Positions 2,845-22,897 of a stretch of DNA of 29,835 nucleotides are shown here, piece by piece. The notes below the pieces were generated by a model. It was not told the DNA's origin. It did not search any database and saw only the letters and a program-made list of their open reading frames with translations. Numbering within the stretch: position 1 is the first letter of the stretch; every line of letters starts with the position of its first letter. This stretch comes from Actinomycetota bacterium. GTDB taxonomy: Bacteria > Actinomycetota > Thermoleophilia > Gaiellales > Gaiellaceae. A program made the position numbers and the translations under genes. Location of the stretch: NCBI GenBank assembly GCA_046724095.1, contig JBKOVW010000235.1:1-29835 (forward strand). The letters run 5' to 3'.

Positions 2845-3531
2845 GTGCACATCGTCACGTTGAGCTTCGACGACGGCTTCGAGCGTTCGTCGATTCGGAC
2901 GGCGGAGATCTTCGAGCGCCACGGACTGGTCGCCGAGTTGAATGTGATCGCAGCCGGCCACCGGAGCAAGCCCGACGAGGAGTGGCACCGCCGCTGGCCC
3001 AAAGGCGACTTTCGCCTCTGGAACGAGCTCCAGGCGCGTGGCCACCGCGTGATGCCGCACGGCCTCGAGCACGTGAACAAAGCGGAGGTTCCGCCAGCCG
3101 AGGCAAAGCGGCTGATCGAGGCTTGCCTCGAGGTGTTTCGTGCCGAGCTGGCAGGGTTCGAAGCGTCGCGGGCGAGCTTCGCCTTTCCCTATAACAGCTC
3201 GACTCCGGCGCTCGAGGCCTGGCTCTGCACTCGCGTGCGCGCCTTCCGGACACTCGGCGATCCGGTGATGCCGCTCCCTTACTCCAACCAGCAACGCGTG
3301 ACGTGTACAAGCTTCGGTCCCGGGCGTTGTGACGACCATCTGTTGCACACGATCGACTCGTTCCTTGCAGGCGAGCGCGGGTGGCTCTGTTACAACCTTC
3401 ACGGGCTCGACGACGAGGGCTGGGGTCCGGTCGGCAGCGACACGCTCGACCGCCTGCTGGAACGGCTGGTCGCGCATGATGCCCGTGTGCTGCCGATCAC
3501 CGCTGCGCTCGACCTGGCCGTCGCCACATGA
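2845..3531 (+). CDS. Polysaccharide deacetylase (NodB homology, CE4-like), no signal peptide
   Basis: Likely start GTG 2845. TLSFDDG (motif 1), HGLEH (metal-binding His), FAFPYN, LHGLD. Stop overlaps the next ATG. Confidence 0.85.
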   Translation: MHIVTLSFDDGFERSSIRTAEIFERHGLVAELNVIAAGHRSKPDEEWHRRWPKGDFRLWNELQARGHRVMPHGLEHVNKAEVPPAEAKRLIEACLEVFRAELAGFEASRASFAFPYNSSTPALEAWLCTRVRAFRTLGDPVMPLPYSNQQRVTCTSFGPGRCDDHLLHTIDSFLAGERGWLCYNLHGLDDEGWGPVGSDTLDRLLERLVAHDARVLPITAALDLAVAT

Positions 3532-4223
3532 CTCTGCGCGAGAAGACCGCTCTCGTCACCGGCACCTCGCGCGGAATCGGGCCTGCGATCGCGCGGGCTC
3601 TGGCAAAGGAAGGAGCGCGGGTCCTCTGCCATGCGCGCAACGACGCCGATGCGCGGACGCTCGCGGACGAGCTCGGCGGCGTGGCGATCGTCGGCGACCT
3701 CTCGTCCGAGGATGGTGTCGAATCGGTGGCCGAGCAGACGTTGGCTGCGACGTCCGTGCTGCACGTCCTCGTCCACAACGCGGCCGTCAACCCGCGACCG
3801 CACGAGTCGTTCGACGAGGTCGACCGAGAGATCTTCCGCGAAGTCGTGCGGGTGAACGTCGAGGCTCCTCTCTTCCTCACACAGGCGCTCCTCGAGCCAC
3901 TTCGGGCGGCCTTCGGAGCCCGGGTAGTTCTCCTGTCTTCGCAGGCCGGGCAGATCACCGGCGGCATGCCGGCCGACGGCCTGAGCTACCGGGTCTCGAA
4001 GGCTGCGCTGAACGCGGTCAGCGCAGTAGCGGCCACCGCGCTCCGAGGCAACGCGATCCTCGTCAACGCGATGCACCCGGGCTGGGTCCGAACAGACATG
4101 GGCGGACCAGAAGCGCCGTTGTCCCCGGAGGAAGGGGCAGACACCGCCGTCTATCTCGCCACGCTTCCGGACGACGGTCCTTCGGGTCGCTTCTTCTACG
4201 AGCGTCGCGAGATCGACTGGTAG
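3528..4223 (+). CDS. Short-chain dehydrogenase/reductase (carbonyl-reductase-like SDR)
   Basis: TGTSRGIG, HNAA, YRVSK (YxxxK), NAMHPGWVRTDMGG. Confidence 0.93.
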   Translation: MTLREKTALVTGTSRGIGPAIARALAKEGARVLCHARNDADARTLADELGGVAIVGDLSSEDGVESVAEQTLAATSVLHVLVHNAAVNPRPHESFDEVDREIFREVVRVNVEAPLFLTQALLEPLRAAFGARVVLLSSQAGQITGGMPADGLSYRVSKAALNAVSAVAATALRGNAILVNAMHPGWVRTDMGGPEAPLSPEEGADTAVYLATLPDDGPSGRFFYERREIDW

Positions 4224-4229
4224 GCGACG

Positions 4230-5105
4230 ATGGCCGCAACGCGCTGCGTCGTCAATCCAGGGTGCAGTCTCGGCGAGGGGCCCCTCTGGGACTCCGACTC
4301 GCAACGCCTCTACTGGGTCGACATCCTCGAGAATCGCATCTACCGATACGACCCGGCCGACGGAGTCACGCGTTCCTGGACCACCCCGGAACATGTGGGT
4401 TTCGTCATCGTCAAACCGGGCGGGAAGCTCGTCGCCGGTTTCAAATCTGGGCTTCATCACGTCGAGCTCGGCGACGACGAGACCGTCACGTCGGCTCGGA
4501 TCGACCGGGTCGATCGCAACCGCGACGACGTCCGCTTCAACGACGCGACTTCCGATGCGGAGGGGCGGATGTGGGCCTGCACGCTTGGCGGAACGCCCGA
4601 GGAGCCGCTAGGGGCCTATTACTGCTACGACGGCGATCTGACCCGGCGCACCGTTGACGCCGGCTATTTCGTCGCAAACGGGCCGGCGCTCAGCCCGGAC
4701 CGCAGTCTGCTCTACACGGTTGAGACGAGCGGACATCCCCGCCGGCGCAAAGGCGTCTATGTGTCGCGCATCGCAGCGAGCGGAGCGCTCGAAGACCAGC
4801 GGCTGTTGATCCCCTGGGACGCCTATGACTCCTCACCCGACGGCGTCGTCACGGACGGCGACGGAAACCTCTGGCTCGGCGAGTTTCACGGCAACGTTCT
4901 CCGCTGCTTCAGCTCCGAGGGTGAGCAGCTCGCAGCCGTACCGCTGACCGCCTGGAACATCACCAAGGCGGTCTTCGGCGGCGAACGGGGTGATCTCCTC
5001 TACGTCACGAGTGCCCGCGTCGAAGTGGACGAGCAGACGCTCGCACGCTACCCGGACACCGGGGGTGTGATCGAAGTCTCGGGCACTGGTGCGCGGGCCG
5101 CTTAA
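4230..5105 (+). CDS. SMP-30/gluconolactonase/LRE family sugar lactonase
   Basis: LGEGPLWD, RFNDA, ANGPALSPD, PDGVVTDGDGNLW, FGGERGDLLYVTSAR. Confidence 0.92.
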   Translation: MAATRCVVNPGCSLGEGPLWDSDSQRLYWVDILENRIYRYDPADGVTRSWTTPEHVGFVIVKPGGKLVAGFKSGLHHVELGDDETVTSARIDRVDRNRDDVRFNDATSDAEGRMWACTLGGTPEEPLGAYYCYDGDLTRRTVDAGYFVANGPALSPDRSLLYTVETSGHPRRRKGVYVSRIAASGALEDQRLLIPWDAYDSSPDGVVTDGDGNLWLGEFHGNVLRCFSSEGEQLAAVPLTAWNITKAVFGGERGDLLYVTSARVEVDEQTLARYPDTGGVIEVSGTGARAA

Positions 5106-5117
5106 GGTGCACATTCA

Positions 5118-6254
5118 GTGAAGATCACCGCGCTCGAGCCGTTCGTCGTCGACATCGGATCGCGGAACTGGTTGTTCGTGGTCGTGGAGACCGACGACGG
5201 GGTCAGCGGCGTCGGCGAGGGCAGCCTGCCGGGCCATCCGCGCGCAGTTGCGACGGCGGTGGAGGAGTACCGGGAGTACATCGTCGGCGAAGATCCGGCG
5301 CGGATCCAGCATCTCTGGCAGCTGATGTACCGGCAGCCGTTCTTCCGCAGCGGTGCCGTGACCTTGTCGGGAATGAGCGCGATCGAGCAGGCGCTCTGGG
5401 ACATCAAAGGGAAAGTCGCGGGCCTGCCGGTCTACGAGCTGCTCGGCGGCCGCTGCCACGACCGCATCAAGCTCTACGCGAACGGGCCCGGCGGCGCCTC
5501 GCGCGAGGAGCTCGGCGAGAGCGCCCGTGCGCTTGTCGACGACGGATTCACGGCGCTGAAGACCGGCCTCGCCGAACCGGTGCTGCCCGTTCAGGGCGAC
5601 GGGATCTTCCGCCGCGCAGCCGAGCATCTCGAAGCGTTGCGCAGCGCCGTCGGCGAGGACGTGGAAATCGCGTGGGACGCGCACGGCCGGTTCACACCCG
5701 CAATGTCGATCAAGCTTGCCCGCGCGCTCGAGCCCTACAACGTCTGGTTCCTCGAGGAGCCCGCGTTGCCCGAGAATGCGAAGGGTCTGGCGCAGGTTGC
5801 GCTGGCAACCTCGATCCCGGTTGCGACGGGCGAACGCCTCTTCACGAAGTGGGCCTTTCGCGAAGTCCTCGAGCTCGGCGGCGCGGCGTTGCTGCAGCCG
5901 GACCTCTCCCATTGCGGCGGCGTGCTCGAAGCACGGGCAATCGCCGCAATGGCCGAGGTCTACTTCTGCGGGCTTGCGCCGCACAACCCGCTCGGCCCGA
6001 TCAACACGATCGTCTCGGCCCACGTGGGGATGGCCAGTCCGAACTTCGTCGCGCTCGAGGTCTGCAACTACGCGCCTGACTGGACACAAGGGCTGCTGAC
6101 CGAGCCGCTCGTCTACGCGGACGGCTACCTCGAACTGTCGGACAAGCCCGGCTGGGGGGTCGAGCTCGACCTCGAGCTGTGCCGGGCTCACCCGTATGTC
6201 GCCGCGAAGCTGCCGATCCTCCGGCATCCGAGCGGCGCGGTCGCCGACTGGTAG
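5118..6254 (+). CDS. dgoD: D-galactonate dehydratase-like enolase-superfamily (MR/MLE) enzyme
   Basis: IEQALWDIKGK, DAHGRF, LEEP, ATGERLF, QPDLSHCGG, PHNPLGP closely follow the DgoD pattern. Substrate not proven. Confidence 0.8.
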   Translation: MKITALEPFVVDIGSRNWLFVVVETDDGVSGVGEGSLPGHPRAVATAVEEYREYIVGEDPARIQHLWQLMYRQPFFRSGAVTLSGMSAIEQALWDIKGKVAGLPVYELLGGRCHDRIKLYANGPGGASREELGESARALVDDGFTALKTGLAEPVLPVQGDGIFRRAAEHLEALRSAVGEDVEIAWDAHGRFTPAMSIKLARALEPYNVWFLEEPALPENAKGLAQVALATSIPVATGERLFTKWAFREVLELGGAALLQPDLSHCGGVLEARAIAAMAEVYFCGLAPHNPLGPINTIVSAHVGMASPNFVALEVCNYAPDWTQGLLTEPLVYADGYLELSDKPGWGVELDLELCRAHPYVAAKLPILRHPSGAVADW

Positions 6255-6257
6255 CCA

Positions 6258-7409
6258 GTGACGGACAAGGTGCGCATCGGGTTCGTCGGCGCCGGGTTCA
6301 TGGGGCAGCTCGCGCACATCCGGAGCTACGCCCTGCTCCGCGAGGAATGCGAGCTCGTGGCACTGGCCGAACCGCGGCACCGTACGGCCGAGCTCGTGGC
6401 GGAGCGCTACGGCATCGGGCGCGTCTACCGCGATCATCGTGAGCTGCTCGAGTCGGAGCAGCTCGACGGGATCGTCGCTGCGCAGAAGTTCATGTATCAC
6501 GCCGCCCTGCTTCCCGAGCTCTATCCGCACGTGCGCCATCTCTTCACGGAGAAACCGCTCGCGCTCTCCGAGGCGACGGGCGAGCGGCTCGGGCGCCTTG
6601 CGCGGGAAAGCGGGTGCGTCCATATGCTCGGCTACCAGCGCCGCTCCGATCTGGCGACCGTCGAGGCCAAGCGCGTCGTCGACGCCTGGAAGGCGAGCGG
6701 TGAACTCGGCCGCCTCCGTTATCTGCGCATGTGCTTCACGGACGGCGACTGGACCGGCAATGCCCACGGGTTGATCGACGCCGGGGAGCAACCACCGTCG
6801 TTCCCCGCCGAGGAGCCGCCGCCCGAGTTCGCCGGAGACGAGGACGCCGTTTGGTCGCTCTCAATCGGCGTGGACACGCTCGTCCATCCGCTCAATCTCC
6901 TCCGTCACTTCGTCGGTGAGCCGTATCGGCTCGTCTTTGTTCACGCCACGGGCCGGCTCTGCGCGTTCGAGAGCGAATCGGGCGTCCCCATGACGATCGA
7001 GGTCTCGCCCTATCGCGTGTCGGTCGGCTACGACGAGGAGCTCTTAGTCGCGTTCGAGCGCGGGTACGTGCGGTTGTCCCCGGCCCCGTCCCTGGCCGTC
7101 AATCGTGCGGGTCGGGTCGAGATCTACAGCGATCCGGGAGGCGTGCCGCCACAGCGCGTCGCGCCAGAGCTCCCGTGGATCGATCCGCAGCAGGCGCAAG
7201 CGGCGAACTTCTTACGTGTCTGCCGCGGAGCGGCAGGACCGCCGACCGACGCCGCGGAAGCGGTCGAGGACCTGCGCCTCGTCGCGGACATCGTGCGTGC
7301 CCGCATGGACCTCCCCGGCGCTCGCGAAGCCGTCCGCACCGACCGCGAGGAACACGTGCGCGCCTGGGAAGAGCAGCTGCGCACGCTCGAGCGAAACAGG
7401 TCTACGTAG
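6258..7409 (+). CDS. Gfo/Idh/MocA family NAD(P)-dependent oxidoreductase
   Basis: IGFVGAGFMG Rossmann motif, LFTEKPLA, GYQRRSD. Confidence 0.88.
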   Translation: MTDKVRIGFVGAGFMGQLAHIRSYALLREECELVALAEPRHRTAELVAERYGIGRVYRDHRELLESEQLDGIVAAQKFMYHAALLPELYPHVRHLFTEKPLALSEATGERLGRLARESGCVHMLGYQRRSDLATVEAKRVVDAWKASGELGRLRYLRMCFTDGDWTGNAHGLIDAGEQPPSFPAEEPPPEFAGDEDAVWSLSIGVDTLVHPLNLLRHFVGEPYRLVFVHATGRLCAFESESGVPMTIEVSPYRVSVGYDEELLVAFERGYVRLSPAPSLAVNRAGRVEIYSDPGGVPPQRVAPELPWIDPQQAQAANFLRVCRGAAGPPTDAAEAVEDLRLVADIVRARMDLPGAREAVRTDREEHVRAWEEQLRTLERNRST

Positions 7410-9420
7410 GCGCGAGCAGGGCGACCCCGTAAGGCCCGAGCACGAGCGAGCCTGCGTCGAGCACGCCGTCGAGGTGGCTCGGCGGCGCGCCGGGAATCGA
7501 GATTGTGCGCTCCTCGGGCGCGTAGTTGAGCAAGAACATGAGCTCCGTGGCCGTACCCGGCTTGCGCAGCTTGACCAGCTCCACATCCTCGGGGGCCTCG
7601 AAGACGTCGAGCGCAACTTCGCGTGCGACCCAGCGGTACAGCTCGTCGAGCGTTGCCTCCGTGGCGGAGCCCCCGATGTAGACGACCCGGCCGGCGCCGA
7701 CCGCGTTGATCGCAACCGCCGCCGCGCCCGCGAAGTCACGGTCGCGGTGCCGATAGACCGGGCGGGCGCCCTTAAGTGAGAGCTCCTCGAACCAGCCGCG
7801 CAATTCCGCGACGGCTCCGCTCTCGACATGCTCGATCTCGACGACGCGCCCGTCGAGGAAGCTGGCGATGTCCGACACCTCGAGTCCCGCCAGCTCGTCG
7901 AGCCAGGCAGGCAGCGGTCGCTCGGGAACCGCGTTCGCCCGGTCCTTGAACCCCGACCGCGCTCCGAGGACGAGCAGCCCGCCACCCTCGACGTAGGAGC
8001 GCAGAGCGGCCGCGACCGCCTCGTCGATCACGTACAGGCTGGGCGCGCTCACGACCGAGTAGGACGAGAGGTCGTCGGTCGGCGCCAGCACGTCGACCCC
8101 GACGCCCAGTCGCCTCAACGCCCCGTAGTGCGCACGCAAGGTGTCGACGTGCGCGAGCGCGGGGTTCGTCGGCTGGATCTCGAGCGCGAAGCGCGCGTCG
8201 TAGTCGTACACGAGCGCAGCGCGTCCGGCGGGCACGGCTCCGCCCAGCAAAGCATCGATGCCGCCGAGCTCCTGCGCCAGGTCGCTGAGCTCTCGGAGGC
8301 GCCGGTTGGGCCGGCCATCGTGGTCGAGAACGCCGTACCAGTGCTGCTCGGTTCCGAAGCGGGCTGAGCGCCAGCGGAAGTAGCAGACGGCCTCGGCTCC
8401 GTGCGCAAGCATCTGGTACGTGTGCAGTCGCATCTGGCCGCGCCGCGGCGTCCGGATCGTCTCCCACCCGAGCGGCCCGACTTGCTGCTCCATCACCCAG
8501 AAGGGCACGTCCTTCAGGCCGCGAATCGCGTCGCAGTTGAGCGCGGGCTCGAGCCAGCCGTCGGTCGTGTTGAAGACCGGGTAGTTGTCCCACGCGAGGA
8601 AATCGAGCTCGCGCGCCAGCTCCTGGAAGTCGAGCTCGCGGAACCTAAAGCTCCTCAGGTTGTGCGTGATCGGAGTGTCCGAGTGCCGCCGGATCTCTTC
8701 GATCTGCAGCCGCTGATACCGGACGAAGCTGTCTGACGCGAAGCGCCGGTAATCCAGCGCATGGGCTGGCGAGGGCGAGGCGGGCAGGAACCCCTCGGGC
8801 AGCGGCACATCGCCGCCCGCCGGGAGGGGGATGTGATCCCAGGAGCGATACGTGTGGCTCCAGAAGGCGGTGCCCCAGATCGCGTTCAGGCGCTCCAGCG
8901 ATCCATATCGCTCCTCGAGCCAGTGCCGGAACGCCGCTGCACAGCGCGGGCAATAGCACCGTTCGCCGAACTCGTTGTCGATCTGCCACGCGACGACACG
9001 GTCGTCGGCGCCGTAGTGCTCTGCCAGGGCCGCAACGATTCGCCGTGACTCCTGCTGATACGTCGGGTTGTTCGGGCAGTAGTGGCGACGGTGTCCGAAC
9101 GGAACGACTCGGCCGTCGCTGTCGATTCGGTGGATGTCCGGATGCTCGGCGCTCAGCCAGCCGGGCGGCGCTGCGGTCGGCGTTCCGAGCACGACCTCGA
9201 TGCCGTTCTCGGCCATGAGCGACACCGTGCGGTCGAGCCAACCGACCTCGAGCGAGCCCCGCTGAGGCTCGAGCGTCGCCCACGAGAACTCCGCCATGCG
9301 GACGACTCGGATCCCCGCTTCGGCCATCATCCTTGCGTCGGTTGCCCAGCGCTCCTCCGGCCACTGCTCCGGGTAGTAGGCGACACCCAGGCGGACCGGC
9401 TTGGAACGCGGCGGGGTCAC
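7402..9420 (-). CDS. GH42 beta-galactosidase (catalytic + trimerisation domain)
   Basis: YYPEQWP, EFSW, WQIDNE (acid/base Glu), CYCPRC Zn site, VMEQQ (nucleophile Glu), YFRWRS, EQHWYG. Confidence 0.95.
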   Translation of the reverse strand: MTPPRSKPVRLGVAYYPEQWPEERWATDARMMAEAGIRVVRMAEFSWATLEPQRGSLEVGWLDRTVSLMAENGIEVVLGTPTAAPPGWLSAEHPDIHRIDSDGRVVPFGHRRHYCPNNPTYQQESRRIVAALAEHYGADDRVVAWQIDNEFGERCYCPRCAAAFRHWLEERYGSLERLNAIWGTAFWSHTYRSWDHIPLPAGGDVPLPEGFLPASPSPAHALDYRRFASDSFVRYQRLQIEEIRRHSDTPITHNLRSFRFRELDFQELARELDFLAWDNYPVFNTTDGWLEPALNCDAIRGLKDVPFWVMEQQVGPLGWETIRTPRRGQMRLHTYQMLAHGAEAVCYFRWRSARFGTEQHWYGVLDHDGRPNRRLRELSDLAQELGGIDALLGGAVPAGRAALVYDYDARFALEIQPTNPALAHVDTLRAHYGALRRLGVGVDVLAPTDDLSSYSVVSAPSLYVIDEAVAAALRSYVEGGGLLVLGARSGFKDRANAVPERPLPAWLDELAGLEVSDIASFLDGRVVEIEHVESGAVAELRGWFEELSLKGARPVYRHRDRDFAGAAAVAINAVGAGRVVYIGGSATEATLDELYRWVAREVALDVFEAPEDVELVKLRKPGTATELMFLLNYAPEERTISIPGAPPSHLDGVLDAGSLVLGPYGVALLAPT

Positions 9421-9423
9421 GTC

Positions 9424-10467
9424 CTACCGATGCCGCGGCGGCCCGACGCTGCCGCGCTCGATCACCGTCGTGGGCAGATGGATGCGGCCGCCTAGCGGCG
9501 CTGCACTGTCTCCCGAGATGCGGTCGAGGAGGACCTTCGCAGCGAGCGCGCCGACCTCACGCACGGGCTGCCGCACGGTCGTCAGCGGTGGGTCGACGAA
9601 GTCCGCCACGGGGATGTCGTCGTAGCCGACCACGGAGAGATCGTCCGGGACGGAGAGCCCACGCGCGCGCAGCTCGCGAATCGCACCGAGAGCCAGCAGA
9701 TCGCTGTGGGTGAAGAGCGCGGTGAAGCCGGCGGCCCGAGTCAGCAGGCGGGCGAGGGCCTCGCGCCCGCTCTCGGGACCCCAGTCCGAGGCCGCTTCGA
9801 CGAGCCTTGCGTCGTATGCCTCCACCCCGCGCAACGCCAGCTCATAGCCGTGCAGCCGATCGCGGGCGGACGGCCATTCTGGGGGACCAGTGATGGTCGC
9901 GATCGTCCGGTGGCCGTGCGCCAGGAGTCGGGACGTCGCCTCGAATCCCCCGTTGCGGTTGTCGACGTCGACCGCCACGAAGCCAGGGACCTCCGGCGAG
10001 CCGATCGAGACGAGCGGCACCCGCTCGACCGCCGGCGGCAGCTGCTCGAGCGTCAGCGGAGCCTGGGGCCGGGCCACGATCAACCCCTCGACGCGACGCT
10101 CGAGCATGAGCCGGAGATACGCGAGCTCGTCGTCCTCGGCCTCGCCCTCGACGCTCGCAACGATGAGGTAGTAGCCGCGCCTACGCGTCTCGAGCTCAGC
10201 TCCCGCGATGGCCTCCGCGAAGAAGTGGTCGGTCACGTCCGCGGTGACCATCCCGAGGCTGTGCGTGCGGCTGCCCATGAGTCCGCGGGCGAGCGGGCTC
10301 GGTACGTATTGGAGCTCCCGAATCGCGGCCCGTACACGTCGGCGGGTGTCGGAAGCGACCTCCTCGCGCCCATTGATCACGCGTGACACGGTCTGGTGTG
10401 AGACGCCCGCGCGGGCGGCAACATCGCGGATCGTGGGGCGCCGGGCGAGATTTCCGTGAACGGTCAC
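9424..10467 (-). CDS. LacI-family transcriptional regulator
   Basis: PTIRDVAARAGVSHQTVSRVIN HTH; VPDDLSVVGYDD and PPLTTVRQP in the sugar-binding domain. Confidence 0.95.
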   Translation of the reverse strand: MTVHGNLARRPTIRDVAARAGVSHQTVSRVINGREEVASDTRRRVRAAIRELQYVPSPLARGLMGSRTHSLGMVTADVTDHFFAEAIAGAELETRRRGYYLIVASVEGEAEDDELAYLRLMLERRVEGLIVARPQAPLTLEQLPPAVERVPLVSIGSPEVPGFVAVDVDNRNGGFEATSRLLAHGHRTIATITGPPEWPSARDRLHGYELALRGVEAYDARLVEAASDWGPESGREALARLLTRAAGFTALFTHSDLLALGAIRELRARGLSVPDDLSVVGYDDIPVADFVDPPLTTVRQPVREVGALAAKVLLDRISGDSAAPLGGRIHLPTTVIERGSVGPPRHR

Positions 10468-10546
10468 AGTCGTTTCGTTGCCTTCATTTGACAGCGCCTG
10501 ACGGGATTTGGAATGTTACCGGCCGCACGGGATGTGACCAGTCACA
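10455..10546. promoter_or_regulatory. Three LacI-type operator boxes (consensus TGTGACCGGTCACA) and a sigma70-type promoter for the beta-helix gene
   Basis: CGTGAACGGTCACA 10455-10468 (12/14), TGTTACCGGCCGCA 10514-10527 (11/14), TGTGACCAGTCACA 10533-10546 (13/14). TTGACA at 10488-10493, 17 bp spacer, GAATGT at 10511-10516. Confidence 0.7.
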
Positions 10547-10616: not shown

Positions 10617-12299
10617 ATGTCTCGCAAAGCGAGGATTAGGTTTCTGATTGCCGCCCTGGCCGGCTGCCTCTTGCTCGTGCTCGGCAGCCCGGCACTCGCC
10701 GCCGGGACGGCCTACTACGTGAACTGCGCCGCTGCCACCGACGGCGACGGCTCGTCGGCGAGCCCGTGGAACAACCTCACGACCGTCAACAGCAGGACGT
10801 TCGCCGCAGGCGACAGCGTGCTCTTCAACCGTGGAACGACCTGCGCCGGATCGTTCGTCTTCTCATCGTCCGGCACGAGTGCAAACCCGATCACCATCGG
10901 CGCCTACGGAACCGGCGCGCTCCCGGCCATCGACGGCACCGGCCAGAATCGTGCCGTCAAGCTGCTCGACACCTCGTACGTGACGCTGCAGGATCTCGAG
11001 GTCAAGAACAGCCGCGTCTGGGGAGTGCTCGTCACGACCGACCACGACGCGCCGGCGGTCGGCATCACGTTGAAAAACCTCGTCGTCCATCACGTGACCG
11101 GGGGTAGCTACGTCGACATGAGCGCCAAGTGGACCGGGCTCGTCGTCTTCGCTCCGGGAATGATTGTCGAGCCCAACATGACGAAGGGGTCGGGCGTCTA
11201 CACGCGCAACAGCTACTTCGACACGGTGCTGGTCGACAACGTGCAGGCCTACGACACGACGCTCTGGGCCGGCATCTTCGTCTGGGGCGTCCAGATCGAC
11301 CAAGACACCCGATGGGCGAAAGACTCGCAAAACGAGTCCATCCAGAGTCGCAACATCACGATCCAGAACTCCACGGTCCACGACACCTACGGCGACGGGA
11401 TCGCCATCTACACGTCACACGAAGGGACGATCCAGAACAGCGTCGTCTACCGCTCCGGGATGGAACCTGGGCCTCCGGACATCGGCACGCCGGTCGGGTT
11501 GTGGTGGTGGACTGCCGAGAACATGGTCGGCCAGTTCAACGAGTCCTACGACAACCATTCGCCCGGCGTTGACGGCGGCGGCTACGACATCGACTACGGG
11601 TCGTCGAACAGCACCATGCAGTACAACTACGGCCACGACAACGGCGCCTACTGCGTCAGCGTCTTCGGCTATTCGGGCGCAACGACGACGAGCATCGTCC
11701 GCTACAACGTCTGCGCGGGCGACGGAACGGTGCACACGTATCTCAAGAAGAAGCCGTCGGGCGGCTTCACGAACGAGATCATGCCCGGCCAGTCCGAGGT
11801 CTATCTCTGCACGTGGGGCGGCGGCAAGCTCGTCAACACGTGGATCTACAACAACACGTTCTACGTGAACAGCTCCGGCGATCCGTCCGCGACAGGCCTG
11901 TTCGACGTCTGTCCCGGCGGAGGAGACGCCGAGACGAACGGCATCTTCCGGAACAACCTGGTCGTGTCGGCCATTCCGAACGTCCTCGGCGACGTCGCCA
12001 CGGCGAACGGCCGGCCCCGCGACTACAACCTCTACTACTACACGGGCGGAACGTTCACCGACCCGAATCCCGAGGCGCACGGCATCTACAACCAGAATCC
12101 CTTGGTGAACGGCCTCGGTTACCACGGGATTGGCAGGCCGACGACACAGTGGACACTGCAACCCGGCTCGCCGGCGATCAACCACGGCACGAACGCGTGC
12201 ACCGGCCTCACCGGTTGCTCGGTCGGGATGCGCGATTTCTTCGGGAACTCCATTCCGCTCGGCGGCGCCTTCGACATCGGCGCGCACGAAGCCGGGTAA
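10617..12299 (+). CDS. Secreted right-handed parallel beta-helix protein, putative glycoside hydrolase (GH136-like)
   Basis: RBS GGAGGAG. Sec signal MSRKARIRFLIAALAGCLLLVLGSPALA. N-cap YYVNC..GDG.S.ASPW..L..VN...F.AGD.VLF.RG, repeated beta-helix rungs, DGGGYDID..S...QYNYGHDN, C-terminal PGSPAINHG...DIGAHE. Confidence 0.8.
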   Translation: MSRKARIRFLIAALAGCLLLVLGSPALAAGTAYYVNCAAATDGDGSSASPWNNLTTVNSRTFAAGDSVLFNRGTTCAGSFVFSSSGTSANPITIGAYGTGALPAIDGTGQNRAVKLLDTSYVTLQDLEVKNSRVWGVLVTTDHDAPAVGITLKNLVVHHVTGGSYVDMSAKWTGLVVFAPGMIVEPNMTKGSGVYTRNSYFDTVLVDNVQAYDTTLWAGIFVWGVQIDQDTRWAKDSQNESIQSRNITIQNSTVHDTYGDGIAIYTSHEGTIQNSVVYRSGMEPGPPDIGTPVGLWWWTAENMVGQFNESYDNHSPGVDGGGYDIDYGSSNSTMQYNYGHDNGAYCVSVFGYSGATTTSIVRYNVCAGDGTVHTYLKKKPSGGFTNEIMPGQSEVYLCTWGGGKLVNTWIYNNTFYVNSSGDPSATGLFDVCPGGGDAETNGIFRNNLVVSAIPNVLGDVATANGRPRDYNLYYYTGGTFTDPNPEAHGIYNQNPLVNGLGYHGIGRPTTQWTLQPGSPAINHGTNACTGLTGCSVGMRDFFGNSIPLGGAFDIGAHEAG

Positions 12300-12315: not shown

Positions 12316-12351
12316 GGGCCGCTCTCCGCTTAGTCCGTCGGAGAGCGGCCC
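12316..12351. terminator. Perfect 13-bp hairpin between convergent genes, likely intrinsic/bidirectional terminator
   Basis: GGGCCGCTCTCCG (12316-12328) / CGGAGAGCGGCCC (12339-12351), 10-nt loop. On the minus strand it is followed by CCAACCTTTT. Confidence 0.6.
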
Positions 12352-12914
12352 TCGAGCGCGCGAATCGCGAAGTCGAGCTGCGCTGCCGGAGCGAAGCCGT
12401 CCCAACGCTTGCGCACGACGCCGTCGGGCCCGATCAGGAATGTCGTCGGCGCCTGTGTGACACCGAACTTCCGCGCGAGTGCGCCGTTGTCGCGGAGCAC
12501 GGCGATCGCCGGGTCGAGGTTCCAGTCGTACGTGTAGTTCACGAGGTCGTCGCGGCTCGGACTCCCGGAACCCGCGAGCTCGGCCGCATCGACGACGACG
12601 GTGCGCAGACCGCGCCGCTCGTGCTGCGTTTGCATGCTGCGCAGGAACACGATCTGCGCGCGGGAGGGATCGCCTTCCACGGTCGCTTCAGCACGGGTGT
12701 TCAAAAACGACACGAGCACGACGTGGCCGCGAAGGCGCGCGAGGTTCACGTCGCCGCCTCGAACTGCGCTGCCCTCGAGAGCAGGCGCGGGCATGCCGGC
12801 TTCGAGATCGACGCGCGGCGCCTTTTCCCCGTGCAGTGCCGCCACGAGCAGAACCCCCACGATCGCTGCGCACGAGGCGAGGACGGCGAGCAGGAGTCCG
12901 CGGCTGCGCCGCAT
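12330..12914 (-). CDS. Membrane-anchored TlpA/AhpC-TSA (redoxin-fold) protein lacking CxxC
   Basis: Likely start ATG 12914, 7 bp after the ATPase stop. N-terminal hydrophobic anchor, GMPAPALEG, LRGHVVLVSF, FGVTQAPTTFLIGPDGVVR (cis-Pro loop), but no WCxxC. Confidence 0.75.
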   Translation of the reverse strand: MRRSRGLLLAVLASCAAIVGVLLVAALHGEKAPRVDLEAGMPAPALEGSAVRGGDVNLARLRGHVVLVSFLNTRAEATVEGDPSRAQIVFLRSMQTQHERRGLRTVVVDAAELAGSGSPSRDDLVNYTYDWNLDPAIAVLRDNGALARKFGVTQAPTTFLIGPDGVVRKRWDGFAPAAQLDFAIRALEGRSPTD

Positions 12915-12921
12915 TGCCGGC

Positions 12922-14118
<1,197 letters not shown>

Positions 14119-14120
14119 GC

Positions 14121-15005
14121 TTACCCCTTCAACCCTGTGGTGACGATGCCGCGCGCAAGCCGCTTCTGCAGAGCGAAGAACGCCAGGAGCGGAGGGATCG
14201 TGAAGAGCAACGAGCCTGCGAGCTGAACCGGGACGAGTGCGAACTGCTGATTCGGGTCGTAGTACCCCGTCGCGACCTTGACCCCGAGGGGAAGGAGCTG
14301 GTCGGGCAGGAGGAGCGACGCGTAGATGTACTCCCCCCACCAGCCTGAGCCGAGGATGACGATCGCGACTGCCAGCGGGCCGATCGAGTTCGGCAGGTAG
14401 ATCTGGACGAACGTCCGCAGATGTCCTGCACCGTCGATCGCCGCGGCGTCGTCGAGCTCCGAGGGGAAACTCGCGTAGAACTGGCGGAAGAGGAAGATCA
14501 GGAAGGCGTTGCCGCTGATCCCCCAGATCAACCACGGCCAGCGAGTCGAGTACATCCCGAGCTCGACGATCACCCAGAAGGTCGGGATGAAGCTGACCGC
14601 GAAGGGGATGAATGTCGTCGCGAGCACGAAGATGAAGAACGCGTTGCGGCCGCGGGCGCGCATCCGCGCGAAGGCGTAGCCGGCGAGCGCGCTCGTGAGC
14701 ACTGCGGGGGCCGTCCCGAGGAACGTGAGGAGGGCCGTGTTCCAAAGGTAGTGAGAGAACGCGAACTCGCCCGACCACGCGTAGTGGTAGTTGTCCCAGT
14801 GCGCAGGGCTCGGGATGACGGGCCCGCTCACCCCCGCGTGGACGTCACGCAGCGAGCCGAAGAAGCCCCAGATGATCGGGGCGAGGAAGACGGCCGCGAC
14901 CGCGACGACGGCGAGGTGAAGGAGCGTGCGCCCCGCGAGCCGCTTCCCTGCGCCGCGTCTGCGCCGCCGCGGACGCGCCCGAACTCTTTCCGCGGCGATC
15001 GTCAC
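14121..15005 (-). CDS. Carbohydrate ABC permease (MalG type), copy 1
   Basis: Start GTG 15005 (GTGA overlap). EAA loop [12 protein letters not shown], ends IVTTGLKG. Confidence 0.92.
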
Positions 15006-15976
15006 TTCCCGTACTGCTCCCGCGCATGGAAGACCCAGAAGCGCCCGCTCCAGAAGACTAGGGCGCTGACGAGCAGCAGCAGCACCACGAAGATCCACGC
15101 GATCGCGGCGCCGTAACCGAAATCGCCGTCGCCGAAGATGCGCTGCAGCGCATAGAGATTGACGAAGGTGTTGTCGCTCGGCACGGTCGACCCGATCCCC
15201 GACTGCAGCCCCGGCGCGAGCAGGATCGGCTCGACGACGACGTTGGCGGCAAGAAACAGGCCCCAGACGAGCTGGAACATGATCACGGGCGTCAGCAGCG
15301 GGATCGTGATCGTGAAGAAGCGCCTGACGGCGCCGGCGCCGTCGATTCGCGCCACCTCGTAGAGCTCGTCGGGAATCCCCTTGAGGCCGGCCAGGAAGAT
15401 GAGCATGCCGAGACCGGCCGAGCCCCAGACCAGGAGCATGAGCAGGGTCGCGGTCGAATGGTCGACAAGCCAGCTGACGTTGCTGCTGCCGCCGAGTACG
15501 CCGAGCACGCGGTTGAGCAGACCACCGTCGGGATCGGTCATCGCCTTCCAGATCGACGCTTTCGCGACGATCGGGACGATTACGGCGACGTAGATCAGCG
15601 TGCGCCAGAGCCCGAGAAACCTGAGGCCGGCGTTGAGCAGCAGAGCGAGCGCCAGCTGGGTGATGAGCCAGAGCGGGACGATCATCGCGATCAGGATCCC
15701 GGTCCGCTGGAACGCGACCCACATCTCGTGGTCGTGGTACGCCCGGACATAGTTGTCTGCACCCACGTACTGCAGGTTCGTGTGCAGGTTCACGGTCGTC
15801 AGGTTCGTCAGCGACATCGCGAATGCGAGCACGAGTGGAACCGAGGTCAGCAGCACGAAGCCGAGCAGCCATGGAGAGAGGAAGCCGTAGAAGGCGAGCG
15901 TCTCGCGTCTCCTGCGAGACGCCCGCCTCCGCGGCCTTACGACAGTCGCGACGAGAGGAGGGTTCGTCGTTGCCAC
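15002..15976 (-). CDS. Carbohydrate ABC permease (MalF type), copy 1
   Basis: FLSPWLLGF, EAA loop ELYEVARIDGAG, ITIPLLTP, GYGAAIAW. Confidence 0.93.
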   Translation of the reverse strand: MATTNPPLVATVVRPRRRASRRRRETLAFYGFLSPWLLGFVLLTSVPLVLAFAMSLTNLTTVNLHTNLQYVGADNYVRAYHDHEMWVAFQRTGILIAMIVPLWLITQLALALLLNAGLRFLGLWRTLIYVAVIVPIVAKASIWKAMTDPDGGLLNRVLGVLGGSSNVSWLVDHSTATLLMLLVWGSAGLGMLIFLAGLKGIPDELYEVARIDGAGAVRRFFTITIPLLTPVIMFQLVWGLFLAANVVVEPILLAPGLQSGIGSTVPSDNTFVNLYALQRIFGDGDFGYGAAIAWIFVVLLLLVSALVFWSGRFWVFHAREQYGK

Positions 15977-16006
15977 AGCGTGACTATGGCACTGCCGAGG
16001 ATCGTC

Positions 16007-17401
16007 CTAGCCCTGCTTGCCTACCTTGATCGCGCGGTTGGTGTCGGATTCGACCTTCTTCATGAAGCTCTGGAAGGACATCTTCCCCTTCGCCGCATCG
16101 CCCAGGTACTTCTGGTACGCGGTCGCGACGGCAGTGTTGTCGGCCAGCCCGACCAGGTACGGGTTGTACTGGAGGGTGACCCTCGACGAGGGCAGCTCGT
16201 GCAACAGCGTCTTCTTCGCGTTCCGCTGCACTGCGGTCTTCGTCGGCAGCCGGTCGAACAGCGACCGCTGGGCGGGGACGCCCCAGCCGATCCCGGCACG
16301 GTCACGGGCGGGCTGGCCGCCCATGTACCACTCGAAGACCTCCCAGGCAGCGTCGGGATTCTTCGTGCGGGAGCTGATCACCCAACCGGTAGCCGTGATC
16401 GTCGGATCGAGGTGCTTGCCGTGCTTCCACCTGGGTGCGAGCAGCAGCCGCGAGTTCTTGACCGCGTCGGCGCTACCGGAATCGCTGATCTGCCCGAGGA
16501 ACCAGTAGCCGTACTGAGTCATCGCGATCTTGCCGCTGACGAAGCCCGGTCCCGACCAGCCGTCCGGGTTCGGGTTCTCGGGGCCGAGGTCGAACTTGTG
16601 CTGCGAGTACCGGAACGAGTAGTGGAACGCTTCCATCGCAGCTGGGTTCTTCGTCAAGTTGATGTGCGAGAAGTCCTTGGGGTACAGGCTCTTCCCGATC
16701 GAGGCGAGCTGCACCATGATGTGACGGTCGATCCACGCGTAGGCGTTGGCCACGTCGAGGATCCACCTGAGGCTGTTCTTCTTCCGTTTCAGCTTGAGCG
16801 CGATCTCCCAGAGATCGTCGTACGTCCACGGGTCGGTCGGGCCCGGGAGGTGGATACCTGTGCCCTTGAAGAGGTCGGTCCTGACCCACACGGTCTCGTC
16901 GGGAGACCAGTCCTTGACCATCCCATAGCGCGGACCGACGCCGACCTTGCCGTTCTTGTACCGGTAGTAGTTGTTCGCCGGCGTCAGTTGCGCGGTGTGA
17001 ATCAGGTCGCTCGCGCGGAAGTACTTGTCGAGATTGAGCAGCTGGCCGCGCTTCGCCCACTGCGGGATCAGCGGAGCCTGCGTGCGCCAGATGTCCGGCG
17101 GCTGTCCGGCGGCCATCATCGCCTGGAACTTCGCGGCGTCTACGTCGAGCAGCTCGATCTTGATGTTGGGGTGCGTGTCCATGAAGTCTTTGATCGACGG
17201 GGTTCCGGCGTTGCCCGCTCCTGCCGTGAGCTCCTGGGTCATGACCACGACCGTGGCCGGCGACGCAAGACGTCGCCGCGGCAGTGCTTTCGCGATCCCG
17301 GGCCCGAGGAGCGAGCCGACAGCAAGTGAGCCGGCCGTGCCCGCAGCGCCCTGAAGGAACTTGCGACGTGAGATGCGACTGTCTTCGAAGGGATCCGACA
17401 T
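16007..17401 (-). CDS. Extracellular sugar solute-binding protein (family 1) with twin-arginine signal
   Basis: ATG 17401 with GGAAAGG upstream (alternative GTG 17410). SRRKFL Tat motif, HPNIKIE, AAGQPPDI, WTYDDL, FVSGKIAM, TKNPDAAWEV. Confidence 0.9.
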   Translation of the reverse strand: MSDPFEDSRISRRKFLQGAAGTAGSLAVGSLLGPGIAKALPRRRLASPATVVVMTQELTAGAGNAGTPSIKDFMDTHPNIKIELLDVDAAKFQAMMAAGQPPDIWRTQAPLIPQWAKRGQLLNLDKYFRASDLIHTAQLTPANNYYRYKNGKVGVGPRYGMVKDWSPDETVWVRTDLFKGTGIHLPGPTDPWTYDDLWEIALKLKRKKNSLRWILDVANAYAWIDRHIMVQLASIGKSLYPKDFSHINLTKNPAAMEAFHYSFRYSQHKFDLGPENPNPDGWSGPGFVSGKIAMTQYGYWFLGQISDSGSADAVKNSRLLLAPRWKHGKHLDPTITATGWVISSRTKNPDAAWEVFEWYMGGQPARDRAGIGWGVPAQRSLFDRLPTKTAVQRNAKKTLLHELPSSRVTLQYNPYLVGLADNTAVATAYQKYLGDAAKGKMSFQSFMKKVESDTNRAIKVGKQG

Positions 17402-17460
17402 GCTCGCCACCTTTCCCTCGCCTACGTCTTATGCCGCCGGCGACCGCGCGGCTCGGCCGC

Positions 17461-17563
17461 TAGCTTGTCTGATAGGTTCGGCCTTGTCAAGATGCTGCCG
17501 CCAGGAGCCAAGGGCTTGATTCGCATCAGCAGATCAAACAAGCTATGCCAGCATGACTGACAA
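17461..17563. promoter_or_regulatory. Back-to-back divergent promoters with FadR/GntR-type operator boxes
   Basis: Minus strand: TTGACA (17490-17485), 17 bp, CAAGCT (17467-17462). Plus strand: TTGATT (17516-17521), 17 bp, CAAGCT (17539-17544), then ATG 17553. Inverted pair TAGCTTGT(C/T)TGAT at 17461-17473 and 17533-17545. Third TGTCNGACA-like box at 17553-17563. Confidence 0.65.
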
Positions 17564-18320
17564 ATCGCTTGCCGCCTTCGACGAGCTCGAGCCAATCGGC
17601 CGCGCCTCGGTGGTGGACTCGGTGATCGAACGGCTCGAGTCGCTGATCTTCGACAGCTTCGAGCCCGGTGCGACCCTGCCCTCGGAAGGGAAGCTCGCCG
17701 AGGCGCTCGGCGTGAGCCGCCTCAGCGTCCGGGAGGCCACCAAGACCCTCGCCGCGCGCGGGCTGCTCGAGATCAGCCAGGGCCGGCGCCCCCGGATCTC
17801 CGTACCGAACGGCAGCCTGGTCGGGGACTTCTTCCAGATCGCCGTGCGCCGTGACCCCCGCGCGCTGCTCGAGCTCCTCGAGGTGCGAAGGGCCCTCGAG
17901 GTCCACATCGCAACACTCGCCGCCCAACGAGCCAATGCCGGCGCGATCGCCGACATGGAGATGTCGATCAACGCCATGCGCTCGGCAGGCGCCGAGTTCG
18001 AAGCGTTCCACACCGCCGACGTCCGCTTTCACGAGAACCTCGCTGCGGCCTCGGGCAACCGCATGCTCGTCTTCCTGATCGAGGCGTTTGCCGAACCGCT
18101 CCGCCAAAGCCGGCAACGGAGCTTTGCCGGCCACCGTGCACGAGGAGGCGGGATCGACGACGTCATCCAGCAGCACCAGACGATCCTCGACGCCGTCACG
18201 GCCCGCAACCCCAAGGCAGCAGCTCAGGCGATGCGCGACCACCTGCAGCAAACCGAGCAGGATCTCCGCACACATCTGCAACGCACCGCGGAGGAGCAAG
18301 CGAAGGCGGTCGAAGCGTGA
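17553..18320 (+). CDS. GntR/FadR-family transcriptional regulator (HTH + FCD)
   Basis: LPSEGKLAEALGVSRLSVREA, GRRPRI, LLEVRRALE, DVRFHENLAAASGN, AMRDHL. Confidence 0.95.
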   Translation: MTDKSLAAFDELEPIGRASVVDSVIERLESLIFDSFEPGATLPSEGKLAEALGVSRLSVREATKTLAARGLLEISQGRRPRISVPNGSLVGDFFQIAVRRDPRALLELLEVRRALEVHIATLAAQRANAGAIADMEMSINAMRSAGAEFEAFHTADVRFHENLAAASGNRMLVFLIEAFAEPLRQSRQRSFAGHRARGGGIDDVIQQHQTILDAVTARNPKAAAQAMRDHLQQTEQDLRTHLQRTAEEQAKAVEA

Positions 18321-19489
18321 GGGTCGTCGAGGTCGTCACGACCGTCGTCGGTGCGCCGTGGCGCGAGCTCACGTTCGTCGAGCTCGTCGCAGACGACGGG
18401 CGGCGCGGCCTCGGCGAGGTTCGGATGGTCAACAAGACGGACACGCTGGTCGCCTGCATCGCCGAGCTCGCGGCCCGATATGTCGTCGGAGCAGATCCGT
18501 ACGACCGGGAAACGCTGGCCTTCAACATCCAGCGCGCGGAGTACAGCCGGCCGGGTGAGATCACGCAATCCGCCCTGGCCGCGTTCGACCTCGCCTGTTG
18601 GGACCTGATCGGTCAGGAGCTGAACGTCCCGATCTGGAAGCTTCTGGGAGGGCGATACCGAGACCGCGTTCGAGCGTATGCGAACGGCTGGTACCAGACC
18701 GACCGCGACCCGGCCGCGCTGGCCGAGAAAGCGGTCGACGTCGTTGCGCGTGGCTATACCGCGCTCAAGCTCGACCCGTTCGGCAGCGCGTGGATGACCC
18801 TCCCGTCCGCCGAGCGGCGGCGATCGATCGAGCTCGTCGCGGCCGTCCGCGAGGCGACCGGGCCCGACGTCGAGATCATGATCGAGATGCACGGCCGCTT
18901 CTCGCCGGCGGCCGCAGCCGAGATCGCGGCCGAGCTCGACCCGTTTGCGCCGGCCTGGCTGGAGGAACCGATTCCGTTCGACAATCCGAGTGGGCTCGCC
19001 CGCGTTCGCGCCGCGACGCCCCGGCCGATCGCGACGGGTGAGCGCCTCCATCTTCTCCCGGACTTCCGCCCGATCATCGAGCAAGGCCTCGTCGACGTCG
19101 TGCAAGCGGATCTCACGCACTTCGGCGGCTTCACGGGCTTGTGCCGGCTGGCAGGGTGGGCCGAGGCGTACGAACTGCCGCTCGCACCGCACAACGTGTG
19201 TGGGCCGGTAGGAACACTGGCGAACATCCACTTCGCGGTCGCCACGCCGAACTACCTGATCCTCGAGCACTTCAACGACTTCGCCGACAGCTGGGTGAGC
19301 GACCTCGTCGATGCCGCACCGGCGATCGATCCGCTCGACGGCTGCTTCGAGGCACCGACCGCTCCCGGCCTCGGCCTTCGGCTCGACCACGATGCTTGCG
19401 CCGAACACCCGCGCACGCACACGGGGATCTTCCTCTTCAGCGAAGGCTGGGAGCGCAGGGGCGAGCCGTCGACGGCGACACCACCGTGA
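18317..19489 (+). CDS. Enolase-superfamily (MR/MLE) acid-sugar dehydratase, second copy
   Basis: ACWDLIG, YANGW, KLDPF, IEMHGRF, LEEP, ATGERL, VQAD, PHNVCGP. Confidence 0.88.
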   Translation: MRVVEVVTTVVGAPWRELTFVELVADDGRRGLGEVRMVNKTDTLVACIAELAARYVVGADPYDRETLAFNIQRAEYSRPGEITQSALAAFDLACWDLIGQELNVPIWKLLGGRYRDRVRAYANGWYQTDRDPAALAEKAVDVVARGYTALKLDPFGSAWMTLPSAERRRSIELVAAVREATGPDVEIMIEMHGRFSPAAAAEIAAELDPFAPAWLEEPIPFDNPSGLARVRAATPRPIATGERLHLLPDFRPIIEQGLVDVVQADLTHFGGFTGLCRLAGWAEAYELPLAPHNVCGPVGTLANIHFAVATPNYLILEHFNDFADSWVSDLVDAAPAIDPLDGCFEAPTAPGLGLRLDHDACAEHPRTHTGIFLFSEGWERRGEPSTATPP

Positions 19490-22894: not shown

Positions 22895-22897
22895 CTC

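Follow-up and report, generated by a model that had tools for sequence, protein, structure and literature searches.

In this study we analysed a stretch of 29,835 nucleotides (hereafter the window) from a metagenome-assembled genome (MAG, G000, 73% complete) of the actinobacterial family Gaiellaceae (GenBank assembly GCA_046724095.1, contig JBKOVW010000235.1). It contains the gene of a secreted beta-helix protein, here called the enzyme, which is flanked on one side by a divergent lacI gene and on the other by a convergent gene for a thioredoxin-fold protein, here called the partner (Table 1). The partner gene starts 7 nucleotides past the ATPase stop codon as the last gene of an ATP-binding cassette (ABC) importer operon, and a gene for a beta-galactosidase of glycoside hydrolase family 42 (GH42) starts 3 nucleotides past the lacI stop codon. 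An earlier note, made from the sequence alone, had proposed that the beta-helix protein is related to the lacto-N-biosidases of family GH136 and releases a galactose-containing disaccharide outside the cell, which GH42 hydrolyses inside. Our analysis supports the relationship with GH136 and points to the thioredoxin-fold protein as a dedicated partner of the enzyme.

Table 1. Features of the enzyme locus, with positions in the window.
Feature	Position	Strand	Basis
Gene of the GH136-type secreted beta-helix glycosidase (enzyme, 560 residues)	10617-12299	+	Open reading frame, profile matches, AlphaFold2 model, VIA-align
Sec signal peptide, residues 1-28, predicted cleavage between ALA and AG	10617-10700	+	Read from the sequence; low model confidence there
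W296-W297-W298, equivalent of GH136 IWPW	11502-11510	+	Profile alignments
E309, invariant Glu of the NE motif common to GH136	11541-11543	+	Alignment; also in the predicted partner interface
DGGGYDID, residues 319-326: D319 (predicted acid/base), D324, D326 (predicted nucleophile)	11571-11594	+	Invariant; aligned with the GH136 pair
QYNYGHDN, residues 335-342, GH136 counterpart QYNYSH	11619-11642	+	Alignment; Y336, Y338 and H340 in the predicted partner interface
C-terminal cap, residues 506-559, NCBIfam 'choice-of-anchor Q' NF041518, E 4.7e-10	12132-12293	+	Aligns with the C-termini of GH136 structures
Partner gene, membrane-anchored thioredoxin-fold protein without CxxC (194 residues)	12330-12914	-	Pfam, PDB matches, alignment, co-occurrence, complex prediction
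Partner S84-R-A-Q87, at the CxxC position of TlpA/ResA	12654-12665	-	Alignment of 24 modules; R85 and A86 in the predicted interface
LacI-family regulator, divergent from the enzyme	9424-10467	-	Pfam LacI and Peripla_BP_3
Cytoplasmic GH42 beta-galactosidase, same operon as lacI	7402-9420	-	Pfam Glyco_hydro_42, E 1e-132; without signal peptide
Perfect 14-bp palindrome TGTGACCAGTCACA, candidate LacI-type operator between lacI and the enzyme gene	10533-10546	+	70 nucleotides upstream of the enzyme ATG
Sugar ABC importer operon: solute-binding protein 16007-17410, permeases 15002-15976 and 14121-15005, MalK-type ATPase 12922-14118	12922-17410	-	Pfam

The enzyme gene is an open reading frame (ORF) that begins with ATG and is preceded, at about 9 nucleotides, by a ribosome-binding site (AGGAGG), and its GC content at third codon positions (0.89) is like that of the real genes of the window (68% GC). 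The N-terminus reads as a Sec-type signal, with MSRKARIRF followed by a hydrophobic stretch and ALA-AG, and residues 1-28 have a low predicted local distance difference test score (pLDDT) in the AlphaFold2 model. The monomer was predicted as a right-handed beta-helix (pLDDT 87, predicted template-modelling score (pTM) 0.88) that begins at about residue 30, and the structural alignments with GH136 described below begin at residue 29-30. In the Pfam scan the enzyme matched only the generic Beta_helix family (E 1.9e-10); PF22842, which is precomputed for some homologues, gave no match in the Pfam scans made here. The C-terminal cap is also conserved in the GH136 proteins LnbX, TnX and BsaX, and public databases annotate relatives of the enzyme as 'parallel beta-helix repeat protein' or 'choice-of-anchor Q'. 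The mature chain has eight cysteines (positions 37, 76, 346, 366, 398, 432, 528 and 534), of which C37, C76, C346 and C366 are invariant in an alignment of 31 homologues. The Sec signal, the beta-helix architecture and the eight mature-chain cysteines that the earlier note had read were thus borne out, its coordinates for DGGGYDID with D319, D324 and D326 are exact, and QYNYGHDN follows as it had described.

Sequence and structure comparisons both lead to GH136. In a phmmer search against the PDB sequences the sole match was ErLnb136, the lacto-N-biosidase of Eubacterium ramulus (E 1.6e-15). A profile of 536 positions built from the 31-homologue alignment matched, almost end to end over profile positions ~30-535, each of the five distinct GH136 sequences of known structure (TnX 4e-42, ErLnb136 3e-34, LnbX 3e-32, BsaX 1e-31 and 24mr 6e-30), whereas the best lyase match stood at 9e-8 over ~95 residues only and was not surpassed by any further family outside GH136. 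Similar results were obtained with the model of the fold. Foldseek placed GH136 at the top (template-modelling (TM) score 0.70, E 1e-18), with a TM score of 0.41 for polysaccharide lyase family 9 (PL9), and the superposition on LnbX that the earlier note had proposed as a check gave a VIA-align Z of 34.8 with a root-mean-square deviation of 2.8 A and 29% identity over 469 residues, covering model residues 29-560. Across the GH136 structures Z was 34-35 over ~465 residues with a structure-based identity of 27-29%, and the next fold was an AlgE epimerase (Z 29.5 over 329 residues); Z was ~26-27 for PL6 and 24.7 for PL9. As beta-helix lyases and AlgE epimerases reach Z values of 24-29 and Pfam sees a generic Beta_helix only, one might consider the protein a polysaccharide lyase of the PL6 or PL9 type, an epimerase or a non-catalytic beta-helix adhesin. 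However, the GH136 matches are better, full-length and supported by sequence, the GH136 aspartate pair and the motifs around it are invariant, and the genes in the vicinity belong to a GH42 and ABC oligosaccharide pathway and not to a uronate pathway, which makes this alternative very improbable. The earlier note had regarded a lyase or an adhesin as best structural match as the outcome that would speak against its proposal. GH136 ranks first, and since the best lyase match is far weaker than those to GH136, this objection falls away.

The residues expected in the active site agree with this assignment. In hidden Markov model (HMM) alignments D319 and D326 fall on the sole pair of aspartates seven residues apart in LnbX, TnX, BsaX and ErLnb136. 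The members of this pair are the acid/base (D568) and the nucleophile (D575) in ErLnb136 (PMC7335108), in line with the two catalytic aspartates at this spacing that the earlier note had named. As D319, D324 and D326 are invariant in the 31 homologues, DGGGYDID is not a chance match. The natural reading of the alignment would be that the enzyme works by retention, D319 serving as acid/base and D326 as nucleophile. Moreover, LWWW (residues 295-298) aligns with the IWPW of GH136, and W296 is invariant and W298 at least 90% conserved; E309 and QYNYGH, aligned with the NE motif and QYNYSH of GH136, likewise show little or no variation in the homologues. In ErLnb136 it is W548 in this motif that stacks the galactose (PMC7335108); whether W296 or W298 is its exact equivalent hinges on a two-residue numbering offset of the PDB chain. 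A conserved tryptophan platform for the non-reducing sugar is therewith predicted for the enzyme on sequence grounds. Taken together, we are very confident that the enzyme is a GH136 homologue with the GH136 catalytic residues. It is part of a large branch from the environment that is sister to the characterised lacto-N-biosidases of the gut, a family of 3,608 cluster representatives at E <=1e-10 and 10,576 at E <=1e-3.

Characterised GH136 enzymes need a second, all-helical component (LnbY or GH136-I), which is encoded by a separate gene or forms an N-terminal domain, wraps the beta-helix and supplies Y145 to the active site (PMC7335108). In the enzyme and its adjoining genes we found no LnbY or GH136-I, neither as a fused domain nor in a flanking gene. 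In the AlphaFold2 model and the structural alignments the beta-helix follows the signal peptide directly. Neither of the flanking genes, lacI and the partner gene, encodes such a helical protein, and where homologues carry N-terminal extensions these are PA14, GDSL or Ig-like domains, none of them helical.

The partner matches AhpC-TSA in Pfam (E 8e-7, down to 6e-10 in homologues) and, among the PDB sequences, weakly ResA and DsbE (ResA E 0.006); its relatives are publicly annotated as 'peroxiredoxin' or 'redoxin'. It has the thioredoxin fold with the cis-Pro loop and possesses neither a redox-active CxxC nor a peroxidatic cysteine. None of 24 aligned partner modules has a cysteine in the thioredoxin domain, and the only cysteine of the copy in the window lies in the anchor. 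The module has conserved motifs of its own (SRAQ, xSMxxQ and YDW), in which S93 and Q97 are invariant; W131 and P156 of the cis-Pro loop are at least 90% conserved. A membrane-anchored, extracytoplasmic protein with the TlpA/ResA/AhpC-TSA fold, next to an enzyme with four invariant cysteines, could be thought to be a thiol-disulfide oxidoreductase that forms the disulfides of the enzyme. With S-R-A-Q in the place of CxxC and no thioredoxin-domain cysteine in any of the modules, this idea is scarcely credible. An extra, conserved C-terminal domain of ~150 residues (FxGxGxARxLS...W.xDxG...; L009:9401-10417, L013:9288-10322, L016:7517-8581, L019:12236-13195, L020:3297-4358, L021:6018-6998 and L023:4538-5584) is present in the partners of Chloroflexota, of Bacillota and of one MAG labelled Patescibacteria; this domain has no Pfam match and is missing from the Gaiellaceae copies and the Acidobacteriota fusions.

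The distribution of the partner was studied in 80 genome loci carrying relatives of the enzyme, which were searched by tblastn and then with an HMM of the partner module on all ORFs. According to the HMM the module accompanies the enzyme in 64 of the 80 loci, as a separate gene beside it in ~18 and, among the 52 Acidobacteriota loci, as a fusion or an abutting ORF in ~45; several of the 16 partner-negative loci are contig ends. With tblastn the window's partner had found 15 fusions, an undercount that made the trait patchy on the tree and was raised by the HMM, and a word-based search for longer partner-containing proteins returned two-domain Chloroflexota forms only and no fusions. The partner is a separate gene adjoining the enzyme in Gaiellaceae, Anaerolineales, Chloroflexia, Ktedonobacteraceae, Paenibacillus, other Bacillota and Streptomyces, and in most Acidobacteriota loci it lies in the same ORF, C-terminal to the beta-helix. 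Accordingly, a quick maximum-likelihood tree (IQ-TREE) has a basal split of a non-Acidobacteriota clade with a separate partner versus an Acidobacteriota clade with a fused one. Besides, five whole genomes from three phyla contain exactly one strong partner match each (181-328 bits), which in all five directly adjoins the top GH136-like gene at a distance of at most ~1.6 kb. The titles and abstracts of the papers found on GH136 with thioredoxin or Acidobacteri describe no thioredoxin-fold partner, fusion or activity for this branch.

Some loci deviate from this pattern or raise separate points. Paenibacillus sp. G009 carries three tandem distant paralogues of the enzyme on contig C3 (54888-64002; 258-273 bits versus 476 for the partner-linked copy) and one further distant paralogue on contig C9. 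No partner match lies near any of them; therefore the family has partner-free paralogous expansions. In a Gaiellaceae MAG the partner is split over two frames (L005:11595-12326, overlapping ORFs with 132 and 70 bits), which is either a frameshift or an assembly error. Locus L052, on a contig labelled as a Klebsiella pneumoniae MAG, has a 34%-identical family member that groups with uncultured Pseudomonadota on the tree, and the label of this MAG therefore looks doubtful.

We also predicted the complex of enzyme residues 29-560 and partner residues 34-194, each with a supplied alignment. The median interaction prediction score from aligned errors (ipSAE) was 0.63 (runs 0.90, 0.61 and 0.63) versus 0.26 for the best control. 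That mark is reached by 58 of 80 solved complexes and two of 110 mismatched pairs, counts that are rough since our own alignments were supplied here. In the complex the partner has a pLDDT of at least 85, and the runs share at least 56% of contacts. We know of no solved complex of this kind, and the pass is therefore unlikely to be recall. On the enzyme, the predicted interface is a ladder along one helix flank (residues 72, 96-102, 126, 151-156, 205-210, 248-253, 271-276, 307/309/311, 336/338/340, 365, 511-512 and 541-542), and on the partner it comprises the helix from the SRAQ motif (85-97), the YDWN loop (129-132) and the C-terminal helix (176-186). It includes the conserved residues S93, Q97 and W131 of the partner and E309, Y336, Y338 and H340 of the enzyme. 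In each coil the interface strands directly precede the loop or strand bearing D319, D324, D326 and W296/W298, and since they do so, the partner should sit on the neighbouring face of the modelled helix. The natural fusion of locus L040 was predicted with confidence to fold as a single unit (pLDDT 86, pTM 0.89), in which residues 455-573 make up a beta-alpha-beta domain of the thioredoxin type.

It could be argued that the thioredoxin-fold neighbour has no direct link to the enzyme and hitch-hikes in the operon, either as an importer accessory or as some generic protein of the envelope, since its gene stands last in the importer operon and some lineages keep the enzyme without it. Against this speak the in-frame fusion in most Acidobacteriota loci, the adjacency in three other phyla regardless of transporter genes, the single copy beside the enzyme in five genomes and a complex prediction that beats its controls with conserved residues at the interface. 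We regard such hitch-hiking as quite unlikely and have good confidence in a dedicated partnership of the enzyme with the thioredoxin-fold module.

With regard to the neighbouring genes, the earlier note had paired the enzyme divergently with GH42. The direct neighbour is lacI and GH42 is the next gene in the lacI operon; the link to GH42 itself is real and conserved across phyla, a GH42 gene lying within 10 kb of the enzyme (<=10 kb) in ~25 of the 80 loci, from Actinomycetota, Pseudomonadota, Bacillota and Acidobacteriota. There is also a precedent in E. ramulus, whose GH136 locus uses GH42 for lacto-N-biose (LNB) and galacto-N-biose (GNB) together with an importer (PMC7335108). In this MAG and in three complete genomes of 4.3-4.7 Mb (G002, G003 and G004) the only GH42 gene adjoins the enzyme. 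The best PDB match of GH42 is the Thermus A4 beta-galactosidase (8e-125); a function as alpha-L-arabinopyranosidase is less likely, the corresponding match being 5xb7 with 9e-52. A LacI gene lies near the enzyme in 15 other loci, and in Rugosimonospora africana the genes for LacI, solute-binding protein, two permeases, GH42 and enzyme form one operon in this order, followed by a GH62-CBM2 gene.

The palindrome TGTGACCAGTCACA between lacI and the enzyme gene has 6-bp arms and is the sole exact copy in the window. With <=2 mismatches allowed, 20 of 100 shuffles do as well; as a LacI operator it is suggestive and not significant alone. Between the solute-binding protein operon and a divergent GntR/FCD regulator (17553-18320) we noticed inverted copies of AGCTTGT(C/T)TGAT at 17462-17473 and 17533-17544, which are candidate GntR operator half-sites. 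If these are real, the importer and partner operon would be controlled apart from the lacI-linked enzyme. The solute-binding protein itself shows weak matches to binders of manno- and arabino-oligosaccharides (E 1e-11 to 1e-13).

Related loci add to the picture of the possible substrate. In Gaiellaceae relatives the enzyme gene stands beside araA, araD, araB, mutarotase, GH42 and GH2 genes. In Acidobacteriota its surroundings resemble polysaccharide utilisation loci and include genes for an outer-membrane barrel protein, for esterases of the GDSL and SASA types and for a GH43-like protein. A 72%-identical homologue of the enzyme carries a galactose-binding F5/8-type C domain, and other homologues carry CBM4_9. 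In 46 loci the outer-membrane barrel protein (CarboxypepD_reg and OMP_b-brl_4) is upstream of the Acidobacteriota fusion, and in 35 Acidobacteriota loci a 656-residue protein without a Pfam or PDB sequence match is encoded directly downstream of the enzyme-thioredoxin fusion (representative L047:2552-4519). The window also encodes a GH3 and two sets of sugar-oxidation genes, at 3528-7409 (SDR, SMP-30 lactonase, MR/MLE dehydratase and Gfo/Idh/MocA) and at 17553-24004 (GntR, MR/MLE, aldehyde dehydrogenase, a U32-like gene and Gfo/Idh/MocA), which suggests non-phosphorylative catabolism of the released sugar.

In the galactan operons of Bacillus subtilis (ganR-ganSPQAB) and Bifidobacterium breve (galCDEGRA) the secreted depolymerase is a GH53 endo-beta-1,4-galactanase. 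A search for GH53 (PF07745), whose control was positive in B. subtilis, B. thetaiotaomicron and T. maritima, gave no match in this MAG (73% complete) or in the complete genomes G002-G004, which carry the GH42-enzyme pair. The neighbouring genes, the linkage to GH42 and importer and the galactose-binding domain combined favour an extracellular attack on a galactose-containing plant-type glycan, followed by uptake of the fragments and their hydrolysis by GH42, in agreement with the scheme of the earlier note. A different substrate would be expected if the enzyme were a true lacto-N- or galacto-N-biosidase. It would then release Gal-beta1,3-GlcNAc or Gal-beta1,3-GalNAc from soil glycoconjugates of microbial, fungal or animal origin, and GH42 would take the place of a GH112 phosphorylase. 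The catalytic pair, the NE motif, the tryptophan platform and QYNY-H are common to the characterised lacto-N-biosidases, E. ramulus couples GH136 to GH42 for LNB and GNB (PMC7335108), and GH112 (PF09508) had no match in the 73%-complete MAG, in a search whose control matched in none of 14 genomes. The structure-based identity to GH136 is nevertheless only 27-29%, neither the window nor the annotated related loci showed genes of hexosamine catabolism, the neighbours stand for arabinose, galactose, sugar-acid oxidation, GH62, GH43-like enzymes and acetyl esterases, and the habitat is soil and sediment. We therefore consider such a biosidase unlikely.

We propose the following model. The enzyme, of GH136 lineage, would be secreted and act as a retaining hydrolase in which D326 is the nucleophile and D319 the acid/base, and the redox-inactive, membrane-anchored thioredoxin-fold module would serve it as a dedicated component instead of LnbY/GH136-I. 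The partner is predicted to bind one flank of the beta-helix beside the strands and loop with the catalytic residues. As a subunit it would probably help the enzyme to fold or stabilise it and tether it to the cell surface, and it may contribute to the wall of the catalytic pocket. The extracellular substrate would be a galactoside of plant or microbial origin, for example (arabino)galactan, from which the enzyme would release short fragments that contain galactose, most probably a disaccharide. These fragments would be taken up by the adjacent ABC transporter and split by the LacI-controlled cytoplasmic GH42. On balance we favour this model as a whole, i.e. the GH136-lineage retaining hydrolase with its redox-inactive partner and the importer/GH42 galactoside pathway. 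For the galactoside pathway with importer and GH42 taken by itself the odds appear slightly better than even, and an exo action that releases a disaccharide is put forward only tentatively. Equally tentative is a further-reaching proposal, in which the redox-dead thioredoxin module is an unrecognised dedicated glycosidase subunit that replaces LnbY/GH136-I throughout a very large environmental branch of GH136, and the enzyme a 'biosidase' of new specificity for plant (arabino)galactan that substitutes for GH53 in gan-type operons. In that case folding, surface retention or pocket formation would depend on the partner, which would occur as a lipoprotein or anchored protein encoded by its own gene in Gram-positive phyla and Chloroflexota and as a C-terminal fused domain in Acidobacteriota.

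Several observations weigh against our model. Rugosimonospora, Actinoplanes and three complete Pseudomonadales/Rariloculaceae genomes lack the partner; in these only generic thioredoxin-fold matches of 21-37 bits were found, and since some enzyme-bearing lineages lack it, it is not strictly obligatory for the fold. Moreover, the enzyme monomer folds confidently without the partner in AlphaFold2, and the partner gene of the window is transcribed together with the importer genes, not with that of the enzyme. We infer physical binding from a complex score that expresses the confidence of the model and is not a measurement. At the importer promoter nothing similar to the palindrome upstream of the enzyme was found that would indicate a shared LacI operator, the solute-binding protein has no informative solved relative, and we infer substrate and product from genomic context only. 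Genome papers list 'GH136' in soil Streptomyces and Paenibacillus, so part of the branch may already carry the GH136 label.

If the model holds, its consequences reach beyond this locus. To our knowledge GH136 has so far been described only in gut bacteria living on the glycans of milk and mucin, and its fold and catalytic machinery extend into a much larger branch of soil and sediment bacteria. The oddest property of GH136 is the need for a dedicated second protein, and in the soil branch this helper would be swapped for an unrelated thioredoxin-fold module that has lost its redox cysteines. With the module found here as a gene of its own, there as a fusion and elsewhere lost, the branch offers an experimentally tractable system for the question why these beta-helix enzymes need a partner. 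The tight linkage to GH42 and ABC importer genes, with GH53 apparently replaced, suggests that plant galactan is turned over by an uncharacterised route in the abundant soil phyla (Acidobacteriota, Gaiellales and Chloroflexota). Furthermore, the generic annotations 'parallel beta-helix repeat protein', 'choice-of-anchor Q' and 'peroxiredoxin/redoxin' would be corrected.

Three known systems can be compared with the one described here. With the GH136 lacto-N-biosidases LnbX/LnbY of Bifidobacterium longum, BsaX, TnX, ErLnb136 and RhLnb136 (PDB 5gqc, 7v6i, 7v6m and 6kqs) the enzyme shares a beta-helix catalytic domain from N-cap to C-cap (Z 34-35), the aspartate pair seven residues apart, the NE, IWPW-like and QYNY-H motifs and, as separate gene or fusion, what appears to be a dedicated second protein; as in E. 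ramulus, it is coupled to an importer and GH42. Unlike them it has no LnbY/GH136-I helical domain, fused or adjacent. Its partner is thioredoxin-like and redox-dead and in the fused form C-terminal, whereas GH136-I is fused N-terminally. The branch of the enzyme has four invariant cysteines of its own, its hosts are soil and sediment Gaiellaceae, Chloroflexota, Bacillota, Acidobacteriota and Pseudomonadota in contrast to the gut bacteria of GH136, and its neighbours point to plant-type arabinose and galactose glycans and not to milk or mucin. The partner resembles TlpA/ResA/DsbE and AhpC-TSA proteins in its fold, its N-terminal membrane or lipoprotein anchor, its extracytoplasmic location and its cis-Pro loop, but differs from them in that no member has a CxxC or peroxidatic cysteine and in being tied genomically to one glycosidase family. 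Finally, the locus has the LacI regulator, the ABC oligosaccharide importer, the cytoplasmic GH42 and the one secreted depolymerase of the gan/gal operons, but a secreted GH136-type beta-helix protein occupies the slot of the GH53 endo-beta-1,4-galactanase, and the gene order in Rugosimonospora is exactly the gan/gal layout with GH53 replaced.

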